DNA from: Escherichia phage SRT7
Reading direction: 5' to 3' (one strand)
DNA length: 39,883 nucleotides
Sequence record: NC_048002.1
Shown here: positions 566-33,348 of the stretch, one piece after another
Position numbering within the stretch: the stretch's first letter is position 1
Layout of the letters: every line of letters begins with the position of its first letter
Position numbers and translations under genes: made by a program
Notes under the pieces: generated by a model
Databases searched by the model: none
What the model was told of the DNA's origin: nothing
Seen by the model: only the letters and a program-made list of their open reading frames with translations

Positions 566-587
566 TCTCCCTATAGTGTGGGTTAAT
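566..587 (-). promoter_or_regulatory. Phage RNAP promoter (phiOR-like), downstream of terminase gene
   Basis: Minus strand reads ATTAACCCACACTATAGGGAGA; one of 12 near-identical copies. Confidence 0.85.
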
Positions 588-690
588 GCAAACCTATTGA
601 TTCATAAGGAATTTCTAAAAGAGGCACATCCTTGTGTCCTCTCATAGTTATTCACTTAAAGTGCATAAGCACTCAATGTGACCTAAGGTA

Positions 691-12781: not shown

Positions 12782-12807
12782 AATGTAATCCTCTTATGAA
12801 TTAGGTC

Positions 12808-12829
12808 TCTCCCTATAGTGTGGGTTAAT
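12808..12829 (-). promoter_or_regulatory. Phage RNAP promoter (phi13-like)
   Basis: Consensus 22-mer on minus strand. Confidence 0.88.
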
Positions 12830-12853
12830 GCACACCACAAGGAGAGCCTATTG

Positions 12854-15268
12854 TTAGATACCTGAAGTGCGGGACGTGTAGGCACCTTCCCAACCACAGC
12901 CGATAACGTTCAGTGGAGTTGTGTGGTCACTGAGAATACGCACAGTGTTGTACAAGGCGTTGCCAGCTACAGGGAATCGGAACTGACCAGTACCTAACGA
13001 CAACCATCCGACCCTTACGTTGTCCGAGCCTAATCGTCCCCCACCCATCGTATAGGTCCACAGTCGGCTAAGGTTCTCAACCTCAACGTCAAACGCTCCA
13101 GTGTTCTCATAGTTCAACCACGCTCGGCGTAACTGTAAGCGCCCGGTGTCTTCGGTAGAGATTGTCCCATCGTCTGCGGTCTTCTTAATGAGGAACTTAC
13201 TGAAGACATAGCGGAAGTCGAAGTTGAACCCAATGTACATCTTGACACCCTCAAGATTCCCATCGTAGACCAGCTTTGGCGCATTGTTCCAACCCACCTC
13301 TGGCTCCTCGAATCTCCACACTTTACCGTCAGGAGCTACAGAACTAATTGTTCCCTTTTCGAACTTCATGTCGTAGATGGTCATGAGGTCGATGGTGGTC
13401 TCGTTATAGTCCTCGTTGTAGGTTCCCGTTGGAATCGTGTATGGGACCTTAGCGTCCAGATAGATTCGATATGGCTCATCAGCGAAGTCCACGGTGTCCT
13501 TAGTGAACGGGATGTATCCCATGAAGACATTCTCCCCGTTCTCCATAATGACGAACATGTTGCTGTTGATGGAGCTTGCAGCAAGAATACGCACATTACT
13601 GCCGAACTCCCAATGTGACCAAGAGGCCTGACGGAGTTCTTCGTTGAGGTACAGGAACTTGTAGATGTAGATGCGAGACTCTGCACCAGACGTTAAGACA
13701 CTCGCGAAGTTCTCCGTAGAGGACCCATGAATGTTGAACACACCGTTCGGGATGTAGCTCGGTACGTGGGCTGTCATGTCCTCAGCGTTCTTGACGGCAC
13801 TCACATCCTGCACAGCGTAATACCGTGAGATTGACGTGAAGGTGGCTCGTGGTGACGCAAAGTAGACGTTACGCCCGATACCGTAAGGACGCGCCCGGTC
13901 ATACACATCGAACTGAGTCGTCAGGTTCAATTCAATGGTCTTGCTAGTCAGGACCCCAGAGGCACTCATGGTGAACTGAGCTTCATCAGACCACAGGAGC
14001 AGCTCCTCAGTGAACGGTACGGCATACTTCAGGATGGACACTCGGTTGTGCGATACTGCCACATCAATCGGGTCATCATCACTAAGGTTAGCCACACTGG
14101 ATGGGAAGAAGTTAAAGTAACGAGCTGTGCGGGAAAGAATAACGTTCTCACCAGAAAGGAACCCTAAACGATTTCGATAGAAGAACACATCGTTAATCGT
14201 AGAGCCGACGAAGGATGGGAAAGGGTTGGTATCATCATCCCCAGACTTACGGTCATTCCAATCGAGAGGCTTAAGGTCAAAGTTACCATCAGCCGCACGA
14301 ATCAGTGCATGTGGCATTGTCTCTTTGACGAACGTTAGGTCTTGGTTCCACCCAATGACTTCCTTCCAGACCTTACGGTCAGCGTCATACTGAACGTAGT
14401 ACGCATCGGCTGTCTTTGAGGTATCGCCAACGATGTGCACTAAGTAGCCATCAGGGGCAACCGGAGGTAACTTGGCGAACGTCTGGGCGTAGTGACTCAC
14501 CGGGTAGATGAGCTGGTCTGCGTAACCATCCTTCGTCGAGAAGTCCGTGATGTCAACTCCAGCAGGTGACTCAATGTAAATGTAACCTTGACCAACTGTC
14601 ACCGTCCACGTGCCGTTATTCAACTTAGCGAGGTTGGTGCGTAGCTGTGTGGCAAGGCTTTCAGCAATCACCTGAGCATCGGTCTGCTTTGAGTGTGCTG
14701 GCTGGGAACCATCAGGAAGGTCCAGTTTGGCTTGCTGTCCACCGTTAAGGTTAACGTAAAGGCTACGACCGTACTGACCACCACGTACCACAATAAGTAC
14801 GCTCTCCTTCTCCTTGAAGGTTCCACCGTTGGACTTATCCGTAGTGTTTCGACCTACAGTCTTCTTGTTGTTTGCAATGAAGGTGTAGTCGGCAATGGTA
14901 ATCATGCGCAGGTCATCGCGAGGGTTAGGTGACTGGATGTAGGACATGTCGCCACGGACCAGATACTCCTTCCCAGACAGGTCGAATACCTTAACGTCGC
15001 TCCCGGAGAAACACGCATAATACTGTTCGTACTCGTCTCGGTTAATCAGGTGGACATACGGATATTCCCCGATGTGTCCCTTAGGCCCAAGGTTCTTAGT
15101 GAACACGATAGGAGAGCGCTTCTGGAGACCTTCAGACTCTGAAGACCATCCGTTAATCTGTTCGCTACCCTGCTCGGCAAATCGTAGAATCTCCGGCTGT
15201 TGACTAATACCGCTCTTGAGGTTCTTAACGGTCTGACTTACTAATGATGTGGAACTAAAACGAGCCAT
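12854..15268 (-). CDS. gp12: Tail tubular protein B (T7 gp12-like)
   Basis: 804 aa; N-terminus ...KNLKSGISQQPEILRF matches T7 gp12. Confidence 0.92.
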   Translation of the reverse strand: MARFSSTSLVSQTVKNLKSGISQQPEILRFAEQGSEQINGWSSESEGLQKRSPIVFTKNLGPKGHIGEYPYVHLINRDEYEQYYACFSGSDVKVFDLSGKEYLVRGDMSYIQSPNPRDDLRMITIADYTFIANNKKTVGRNTTDKSNGGTFKEKESVLIVVRGGQYGRSLYVNLNGGQQAKLDLPDGSQPAHSKQTDAQVIAESLATQLRTNLAKLNNGTWTVTVGQGYIYIESPAGVDITDFSTKDGYADQLIYPVSHYAQTFAKLPPVAPDGYLVHIVGDTSKTADAYYVQYDADRKVWKEVIGWNQDLTFVKETMPHALIRAADGNFDLKPLDWNDRKSGDDDTNPFPSFVGSTINDVFFYRNRLGFLSGENVILSRTARYFNFFPSSVANLSDDDPIDVAVSHNRVSILKYAVPFTEELLLWSDEAQFTMSASGVLTSKTIELNLTTQFDVYDRARPYGIGRNVYFASPRATFTSISRYYAVQDVSAVKNAEDMTAHVPSYIPNGVFNIHGSSTENFASVLTSGAESRIYIYKFLYLNEELRQASWSHWEFGSNVRILAASSINSNMFVIMENGENVFMGYIPFTKDTVDFADEPYRIYLDAKVPYTIPTGTYNEDYNETTIDLMTIYDMKFEKGTISSVAPDGKVWRFEEPEVGWNNAPKLVYDGNLEGVKMYIGFNFDFRYVFSKFLIKKTADDGTISTEDTGRLQLRRAWLNYENTGAFDVEVENLSRLWTYTMGGGRLGSDNVRVGWLSLGTGQFRFPVAGNALYNTVRILSDHTTPLNVIGCGWEGAYTSRTSGI

Positions 15269-15895: not shown

Positions 15896-15938
15896 CAAAA
15901 AACCCCTCAAGCATCCCGAAGGACACCCAAGGGGTTTC
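15896..15938 (-). terminator. T-phi-like terminator for phage RNAP, downstream of capsid gene
   Basis: Minus RNA AACCCCUUGGGUGUCCUUCGGGAUGCUUGAGGGGUUUUUUG: GU-rich hairpin plus U6; same position as T7 T-phi. Confidence 0.85.
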
Positions 15939-15940
15939 TG

Positions 15941-25498: not shown

Positions 25499-25526
25499 AA
25501 TTTGTACTCCTTTGTAATTAATAGAT

Positions 25527-25570
25527 AATCATAAAGGCCACCTTTCGATGACCTTGAGTTTACCTATCAG
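25527..25570 (-). promoter_or_regulatory. RNase III-type processing hairpin (R4.7-like)
   Basis: Minus RNA CTGATAGG...AAGGTCATC-GAAA-GGTGGCCTT, 9-bp stem with GNRA-like loop; overlaps stop of upstream ORF. Confidence 0.5.
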
Positions 25571-25845
25571 CTACTCAGCTCATCCAGATACGCCTTAGCG
25601 AACGCTTTGGTACGCGCTTCATCACGTTCTGGGATTGCTTTCTGTACTTGCTTGGTCAGGAGACCTAACAGGCGAGCTGCCTGAGTGTCATCTAACGTGG
25701 TACGTTGAGTGTGCATTTTCGGTGACGTACGGTCCTTCCAGCGGTAGACCATAGTGACCTTACCATTACGGACGTTAACGTGGATGCGACGATTGAAGTG
25801 GTCAACCGTATCGGACAGGTGCAGGGTCTGGGATGATTTAGACAT
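25567..25845 (-). CDS. Hypothetical protein (92 aa) at gene 4.5 position
   Basis: ATG with TAAGGAGA RBS; stop embedded in conserved CTGATAGG motif. Confidence 0.65.
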   Translation of the reverse strand: MSKSSQTLHLSDTVDHFNRRIHVNVRNGKVTMVYRWKDRTSPKMHTQRTTLDDTQAARLLGLLTKQVQKAIPERDEARTKAFAKAYLDELSS

Positions 25846-25856
25846 TATGTGTCTCC

Positions 25857-25922
25857 TTACGAGTTTGCGATGAGGATAAATACGAGACCGAGAGCTACGC
25901 CCAGCAGAAAGTAACCGTCCAT
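25857..25922 (-). CDS. Tiny hydrophobic peptide (21 aa), speculative
   Basis: MDGYFLLGVALGLVFILIANS; ATG 1 nt after upstream stop (TAAGATG); fills the gap between neighbours. Confidence 0.3.
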   Translation of the reverse strand: MDGYFLLGVALGLVFILIANS

Positions 25923-25923
25923 C

Positions 25924-26133
25924 TTAGAAGAACTCCTTCAGTTTCTGAGCCTGAGCAGCAACCTTAGCGGCCTCTGCGGTATTATCCATTGAGCCTTGAG
26001 TTAACTCTTGAACACGGCGAGCCAGCTTCTGGGCCATAGCTGCTTCAGTACGTGCCTTTGCGTTCAGACGCTTGGCTTCAACGTTGTACATTTTGATTAC
26101 TAACTTTCCGAGGGACTTAATGAACTTAAACAT
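25924..26133 (-). CDS. Hypothetical protein (69 aa) at gene 4.3 position
   Basis: AAGGAG RBS; directly downstream of phi4.3-like promoter. Confidence 0.65.
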   Translation of the reverse strand: MFKFIKSLGKLVIKMYNVEAKRLNAKARTEAAMAQKLARRVQELTQGSMDNTAEAAKVAAQAQKLKEFF

Positions 26134-26164
26134 AATGGACTCCTTAAAGTAGTTGATGGGAAGT

Positions 26165-26186
26165 GTTCCCTATAGTGTGGGTTAAT
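26165..26186 (-). promoter_or_regulatory. Phage RNAP promoter (phi4.3-like; GGGAAC initiating variant)
   Basis: Minus ATTAACCCACACTATAGGGAAC. Confidence 0.8.
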
Positions 26187-26263
26187 GTCGTGAAGGACAG
26201 ACACAAGGTCTATCCCAAGGGCAGTTGCATTGTGTGGTCAGCTTCCAGTCAGGTTCTAGTTGA

Positions 26264-28092
<1,829 letters not shown>

Positions 28093-33281: not shown

Positions 33282-33303
33282 GTTCCCTATAGTGTGGGTT
33301 AAT
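33282..33303 (-). promoter_or_regulatory. Phage RNAP promoter (phi1.1A-like; GGGAAC variant)
   Basis: Minus ATTAACCCACACTATAGGGAAC. Confidence 0.8.
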
Positions 33304-33348
33304 GATAAGACCCTGAAGATTCAAGGCCTTAGGTATTAACCGACGCTG

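Follow-up and report, generated by a model that had tools for sequence, protein, structure and literature searches.

The stem-loop that follows the primase/helicase gene of Escherichia phage SRT7 is most likely a by-product of the protein-coding tail of gene 4.2, a gene that overlaps the 3' end of gene 4 (we put the probability of this reading at roughly 0.7). The window, meaning the whole stretch of 39,883 nucleotides that was analyzed, is T7-like (genus Foetvirus, subfamily Studiervirinae), and its genes lie on the minus strand. Its closest relative is Escherichia phage P1723, with 97.9% identity over 801 nt around the hairpin. Genes 4.3, 4.5, 4.7, and 5 follow gene 4 in that order. The features on which the argument turns are these:

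26264..27985, minus strand: gene 4, primase/helicase; stop TAG at 26266..26264, with the ATG placed at 27985 by analogy with the P1723 coding sequence.
26182..26550, minus strand: homologue of gene 4.2 (122 aa), read +1 with respect to gene 4; ATG at 26550..26548, stop TAA at 26184..26182.
26182..26263, minus strand: the part of gene 4.2 beyond gene 4, which reads ...QLEPDWKLTTQCNCPWDRPCVCPSRH up to the stop, with the pattern CxC-x6-CxC, and contains the hairpin.
26194..26216, minus strand: the hairpin, with 5' arm GGGAUAGAC (26216..26208), loop CUUGU (26207..26203), and 3' arm GUCUGUCCU (26202..26194).
26165..26187, minus strand: phi4.3-type phage RNA polymerase promoter, -17 to +6, with the +1 G at 26170.
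25924..26133, minus strand: gene 4.3, 69 aa, the first downstream gene (noted as "putative Protein 4.3" in P1723).

The minus-strand RNA reads ...CCCUU GGGAUAGAC CUUGU GUCUGUCCU UCACGAC AUUAACCCACACUAUAGGGAAC..., and the stem comprises 9 bp, including two G·U pairs, in a span of 23 nt. A preliminary description of this DNA had reported an 8-bp stem with one GU pair. That stem is present on the minus strand, where GGAUAGAC (26215..26208) pairs with GUCUGUCC (26202..26195), one of the pairs being U·G; a further G·U pair outside it (26216/26194) brings the total to 9 bp. The sequence and position reported for it, 26191-26215, were correct apart from the lower end, 26191, which overshoots the stem by 3-4 nt. 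The structure is specific to the sense strand, since on the antisense strand the G·U positions would be C-A mismatches. In the 35-nt context, the minimum free energy (MFE) is -12.0 kcal/mol, with z = -2.3 relative to dinucleotide shuffles (ViennaRNA). The same hairpin forms in a 131-nt context, without a lower stem, and the z-score of that segment is only -1.0.

The placement after gene 4 and just before a phi4.3-type promoter was also right. The hairpin lies 48 nt downstream of the gene 4 stop and 6 nt upstream of the promoter, and the window has 12 occurrences of the promoter 20-mer ATTAACCCACACTATAGGGA (26186..26167 here), none of them on the plus strand, whereas chance would give 0. Phi4.3 is annotated at the equivalent place in the T3 and BA14 records. 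The gene 4.2 stop TAA sits within the promoter, and the Shine-Dalgarno sequence of gene 4.3 (AAGGAG) is ~50 nt from the hairpin. Since the promoter +1 (26170) is downstream of the hairpin, only read-through transcripts from upstream contain it.

Gene 4.2 overlaps the last 287 nt of gene 4 and then runs 82 nt past the gene 4 stop. Its product matches the PHROG 5140 profile (E = 1e-43, residues 1-113) and Pfam DUF5480 (PF17576; 49.1 bits, against a cutoff of 25). Its arrangement is that of the gp4.2 family, with a +1 overlap with the 3' end of gene 4, an internal ATG, and an extension towards phi4.3, matching 12988..13326 in T7. Reading back into gene 4, the frame has no stop for 136 codons, and this region is the longest stop-free run in the gene 4 +1 frame, where a stop otherwise occurs about every 25 codons. 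Of the 24 loci examined, 23 have an intact ORF (117-140 aa); the 23 include KpV767 and Kpn17, which have late 1-nt deletions in the tail, and the 24th is Adeo. Gene 4 encodes His-Glu where gene 4.2 starts, and the ATG is formed only if His is encoded by CAT, the less used of its two codons in long ORFs (50 CAT to 112 CAC, 31% usage). CAT is nevertheless kept at this position in all eight of the eight lineages compared, with variable wobble bases around it, and a purine-rich stretch lies upstream of the conserved in-frame ATG. Independent initiation at this ATG would be the most likely route to the protein.

Homologous ORFs are annotated as gene 4.2 in T7, T3, BA14, and 285P, and nothing is annotated at this place in most GenBank records, including that of P1723. 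The gp4.2 ORFs of T7, T3, BA14, 285P, and K1F resemble that of SRT7 in starting within gene 4 (cATGAAGAAGG), in using the +1 frame, and in having a hydrophobic N-terminal two thirds. Like the SRT7 ORF, the known gp4.2 ORFs pass the gene 4 stop and end at or in the phi4.3 promoter. BA14 and 285P also share the tail of SRT7 (DW.LTTQC.CPWD.PCVCP), whereas the T7 tail, DRILDDFPDDYEKFRWRVPF, has no cysteines, and the T3-type (CPCGHSDCDG or CHCGHPDCDG) and K1F (CQCPEC) tails differ from it. T7 gp4.2 is dispensable (PMC11482910), and its over-expression is toxic, an effect relieved by stringent-like RNAP alleles (PMC13483052). AlphaFold2 modeling of gp4.2 from a seven-sequence alignment predicted two long helices in the hydrophobic N-terminal two thirds, with moderate confidence. 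It produced no confident model of the tail (pLDDT 39-60) and was uninformative for the Cys motif. The hydrophobicity may follow in part from the T/C-rich wobble bases of gene 4, which are the second codon positions of gene 4.2.

The hairpin had been assigned to the 3' untranslated end of the gene 4 message. It lies instead within what we regard as the coding tail of gene 4.2, and the sequence conservation around it shows three-base periodicity. The conserved tail in the gene 4 +1 frame reads ...DWKLTTQCNCPWDRPCVCPSRH up to the stop, and the tryptic peptide of this tail would be LTTQCNCPWDRPCVCPSR. Both hairpin arms are made of its codons: tGG GAT AGA C corresponds to W-D-R and GTC TGT CCT to V-C-P. 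A distant-mode search with the seemingly intergenic region returned ~100 Przondovirus phages whose matches cover just the stretch from the last gene 4 codons through the hairpin. A five-sequence alignment across Foetvirus, Przondovirus, and Berlinvirus, in which SRT7 was compared with KMI1 from Przondovirus and with the Berlinvirus phages K12P1.1 and Citrof5, revealed a conserved block of 60 nt whose differences fall at every third base. Among 14 unique sequences, the variable columns of the 19-codon block number 5/19, 4/19, and 16/19 at codon positions 1, 2, and 3, respectively (16/19 at the third position versus 9/38 at the first and second; Fisher P = 1.7e-5). Codon differences between pairs are overwhelmingly synonymous in the gene 4.2 frame, with synonymous to nonsynonymous counts of 8:0 for SRT7 versus Citrof5, 8:0 versus IME321, and 6:0 versus KMI1; in the other two frames, most codon differences are nonsynonymous. 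These patterns show that the conservation of the block across genera reflects purifying selection on the peptide; protein coding accounts for the conserved sequence around the hairpin. Translation of gene 4.2 is probable on evolutionary grounds, namely the three-base pattern of its codons, the excess of synonymous changes, and the retention of its ATG.

The tail was found by tblastn in ~105 GenBank phage records. Its carriers are Przondovirus, Berlinvirus, and Foetvirus phages, the Kayfunavirus RDN8.1, and the Apdecimavirus Ayanbimpe, and the database proteins of BA14, 285P, and KMI4 bear the same tail. The comparative set consists mainly of GenBank phages; scans of IMG/VR gave few loci, and in a metagenome pattern scan, 3 of 43 loci were real homologues, the rest being chance matches to the degenerate pattern. 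The tail resembles a CxC...CxC metal-binding knuckle and may bind metal. A PDB sequence search with the tail returned no meaningful match.

Variants of the tail were seen in several phages. In KpV767, the tail frame is shifted by a GGG to GG change at the Trp-Asp junction, with the hairpin otherwise unchanged, and in Kpn17 one G is deleted near the tail stop, with the nucleotide sequence and hairpin otherwise unchanged. These deletions are either sequencing errors or natural losses of the peptide. In Klebsiella phage Adeo (1310..1603 of locus L018), an in-frame fusion immediately upstream of gene 5 joins a 4.7-like N-terminus to the sequence of the last ~10 gene 4 codons and the Cys tail, and a different tail follows Adeo's own gene 4. 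Two metagenome proteins have 4.3-like N-termini fused to the same Cys tail. The Cys tail module thus seems to move by recombination with its frame kept; the metagenome cases could be assembly chimeras. Outside the carriers of this tail, Teetrevirus gp4.2 proteins end in KGCPCGHSDCDGIMYH and YQCHCGHPDCDGGMYH in ~100 T3-like records, and that of K1F ends in a Cys/His cluster (KCQCPECDW..HH). These CxC...C/H tails of T3-type and K1F-type phages are analogous to that of SRT7. The gp4.2 tails of T7, PhiV-1, and one metagenome variant are free of Cys. The distribution of Cys/His ends across genera suggests a recurrent small metal-binding C-terminus.

A tail that is in the +1 frame of gene 4 and under protein-level selection might also be reached by a +1 frameshift near the end of gene 4. 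The Cys-rich tail would then replace the acidic C-terminus of gp4, and the hairpin would act as a downstream stimulator. In the alignment, the gene 4 ends of K12P1.1 and Citrof5 (GAC UUU UGA) do form a prfB-like slippery context. However, no shift-prone motif is conserved, the corresponding ends being UAC UAG in SRT7, UAU UGA in KMI1, and UUC UGA in T7. A hairpin 48 nt past the stop is too distant for a stimulator, and +1 frameshifts are normally stimulated by an upstream Shine-Dalgarno sequence and a slow codon. Two properties of gene 4.2 itself also speak against frameshifting: a conserved in-frame ATG with its purine-rich stretch is available 287 nt earlier, depending on a disfavored His codon in every lineage, and no stop interrupts the +1 frame over its 122 codons. 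With no slippery context conserved, frameshifting from gene 4 is unlikely, and we give this explanation of the tail very little weight.

We give marginally less weight still to a non-coding origin, in which the region is an untranslated spacer, the ORF an accident, and the hairpin a random inverted repeat. Chance hairpins of such a size do arise about once per kb, the region is unannotated in most GenBank records (P1723 included), and the AlphaFold confidence for the tail is low (pLDDT 39-60). A non-coding spacer nevertheless fails to explain the concentration of substitutions at third bases (P = 1.7e-5) and the 8:0 synonymous excess across four genera, and this reading is disfavored.

We compared the SRT7 hairpin with chance expectation. 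With a minimum stem of 9 bp, loops of 3-8 nt, and G·U allowed, the sense strand of the window yields 57 hairpins, or about one per kb, compared with 36 ± 8 in dinucleotide shuffles of the sense strand. An MFE of -12.0 kcal/mol or lower is reached by 7.9% of all 42-nt sense-strand windows. At the region level, 56% of random 110-nt segments of the genome hold a 42-nt window that folds at least as well (empirical P = 0.56). We then held the peptide CPWDRPCVCPSRH fixed and redrew its codons 1,500 times. The mean MFE of these recodings was -8.1 kcal/mol with phage codon usage and -10.6 kcal/mol with uniform usage, and the native -12.0 kcal/mol was matched by 8.6% and 31.5% of them, respectively (P = 0.09-0.32). 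The hairpin does exist, yet its strength does not exceed chance expectation for this T7-like phage, and the peptide sequence by itself nearly accounts for its structure.

The proposed origin of the hairpin follows from the composition of the tail. Cys, Pro, Trp, Gly, and Arg have G+C-rich codons that can in part pair with one another, and nearly every way of encoding the tail peptide would therefore be expected to fold, to about -8 to -11 kcal/mol; the native value of about -12 kcal/mol is within range. The hairpin may form transiently in read-through transcripts. Nothing in SRT7 indicates that it is selected or functional. In RDN8.1, most of the peptide is kept (CPWDRPCSCA), yet 6 of the 10 hairpin pairs are broken. 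The suggestion that the stem-loop could be a 3' stabilizer or processing site therefore finds no support in SRT7, where its stability is ordinary and within the constraint set by the peptide, the stem is short, and there is no U-tract.

Known RNA signals were also considered. An intrinsic terminator would show a T-rich run 0-2 nt after a G+C-rich stem. This reading was rejected, as the stem is followed by UCACGACAUUAACCC (tail TCACGACA), which is not a U-tract, and a terminator and sigma-70 scan of 25800..26700 called nothing at the hairpin. Tphi-type class I terminators are similar in being stem-loops in the sense transcript, whereas the SRT7 hairpin lacks a U-tract. SRT7 has a Tphi-like late terminator of its own at 15898..15939 (minus strand, read from 15939 to 15898), a G+C-rich hairpin with a 19-bp stem at -25.8 kcal/mol followed by TTTTT, which the hairpin after gene 4 does not resemble. 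The class II pause/termination signal of T7 RNA polymerase has an ATCTGTT core followed by a U-rich stretch. This core is absent here: SRT7 has GTCTGTCC / GUCUGUCC and the BA14 type has GTGTGTCC / GUGUGUCC, and even a TCTGT core is not conserved in BA14-type relatives. Compared with Rfam at E ≤ 10, the segment 25800..26700 had just two matches, both at chance level (E = 2.6-3) and away from the hairpin. A DNA cruciform or protein-binding palindrome was rejected because the G·U pairs, of which there are up to four in BA14, are C-A mismatches on the other strand.

T7 RNase III sites share with the SRT7 hairpin the property of being sense-strand hairpins in polycistronic late transcripts beside a phage promoter, as with T7 R4.7 beside phi4.7. 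They differ in size and shape. A T7 R site folds irregularly over about 60 nt; its two stems flank an internal loop and together make roughly two helical turns (about 20 bp). The SRT7 hairpin has only 9 bp in 23 nt, has no lower stem, and is inside an ORF, and we rejected this assignment. A hairpin of the expected kind is found 650 nt downstream, between genes 4.5 and 4.7 (25513..25574, minus strand). It spans 61 nt, has two stems and an internal loop, and folds at -23.4 kcal/mol (z = -3.8); 0 of 200 shuffles folded as well. This structure looks like the counterpart of T7 RNase III site R4.7, but it has no promoter copy beside it.

Hairpins do occur beside other promoter copies in the window. 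At 33306..33331 (minus strand), an 11-bp hairpin (-13.2 kcal/mol) stops 3 nt short of another promoter copy, 33284..33303. At 12807..12846 (minus strand), the 3' arm of a 16-bp stem (-24.3 kcal/mol) is itself the promoter copy at 12810..12829, so that this promoter would be paired with its upstream complement in read-through RNA. We folded the 90 nt upstream of all 12 promoter copies and found an adjacent hairpin only at phi4.3 and at 33306..33331, and an architecture with a hairpin before every promoter was thus rejected.

The hairpins of related phages bear on a further explanation, in which the structure is dual-coded: a remnant of a selected RNA structure located at the end of the gene 4/4.2 message, just before phi4.3. 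Such an element would shield the mRNA upstream of it from 3'-to-5' exonucleases once an endonuclease has cut downstream, or it would itself be a processing site; its confinement to read-through transcripts, with the promoter +1 downstream, speaks for this role. Several relatives have stronger structures than SRT7. In Przondovirus, the stem continues as GCCC-A-UGGGAUAGAC...GUCUGUCCUG-ACA-GGGC and folds at -18 to -23 kcal/mol, and in Berlinvirus the same hairpin has 12-16 bp and folds at -16 to -23 kcal/mol. The hairpins of these two genera are in the top 0.02-0.7% of 42-nt windows, with region-level P values of 0.01-0.04. They are also more stable than synonymous recodings in Citrof5 (P = 0.0007-0.002), in KMI1 (P = 0.002-0.014), and in BA14 and 285P (P = 0.04-0.06). 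These P values are not independent, because the lineages are related. At the region level, the hairpin is unremarkable in RDN8.1 (P = 0.41), K1F (P = 0.53), and Adeo (P = 0.93).

The pattern of substitutions can be read in both directions. One compensatory change is present, in the BA14/285P clade, where Arg AGA has become Ala GCR and Val GTC has become GTG, converting G:C to C:G. Most other stem substitutions, several of them one-sided, preserve pairing (94.3% of cells paired), and the structure is specific to the sense RNA because of several G·U pairs. However, the covariation comes down to one event, and both-sided pair changes were as numerous in 246 of 500 shuffles. SRT7 itself has no lower stem, since the 3' flank (TCACGACAT / UCACGACAU) cannot pair, and what remains is statistically ordinary. 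The lower stem is lost where the promoter abuts the end of the gene 4.2 ORF. A 3' protective stem-loop is expected to combine stability above background with covariation. The SRT7 hairpin lacks this combination; the relatives exceed background in stability and have one covarying pair.

Hairpins are also present in phages with other tails. In T7, a hairpin of -19.5 kcal/mol lies between the gene 4 stop and phi4.3 (13279..13317; 580..618 of locus L005), though the 4.2 tail sequence is unrelated. It consists of 10 bp plus an inner stem, GACUUUCCAG...CUGGAGAGUC, and none of 1,500 synonymous recodings of the 4.2 frame was as stable (region-level P = 0.01). We found no description of this hairpin in the literature searched. 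The T3-type tails CPCGHSDCDG and CHCGHPDCDG have different hairpins, at -14.8 and -15.5 to -18.7 kcal/mol, respectively. Against a function at this position, the late RNase III sites listed for T7 are R3.8, R4.7, R6.5, and R13 only, with none at 4.3 (PMC6938266), and a heat-adapted T7 line remains viable after losing the segment from the C-terminus of 4.2 through gene 4.7 (PMC8923235). The literature searched contained no account of a transcript end or an RNase III site at phi4.3.

Taking both sides together, we consider a selected RNA function unlikely for the hairpin family, and less likely for the SRT7 copy. A more specific form of this idea is slightly more doubtful again, namely that the SRT7 hairpin is the eroded top of a Studiervirinae dual-coded element ("R4.3") co-evolving with a Cys-rich, probably metal-binding tail. 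If this were true, the element would be an unrecognized site of mRNA processing or stability, strong in Przondovirus, Berlinvirus, and T7.

With the hairpin read as a by-product of the gene 4.2 tail, it matters little as an RNA element in SRT7, being ordinary and needing no special explanation. Comparative evidence instead suggests that the overlapping gene 4.2, "hypothetical" in T7 and mostly unannotated in its relatives, is real, with protein-level selection on its non-overlapping tail in at least four genera and ~105 genomes. The same evidence points to a small, putatively metal-binding motif as the conserved business end of gp4.2. More generally, conserved hairpins that appear to be intergenic can be the coding sequence of another frame.
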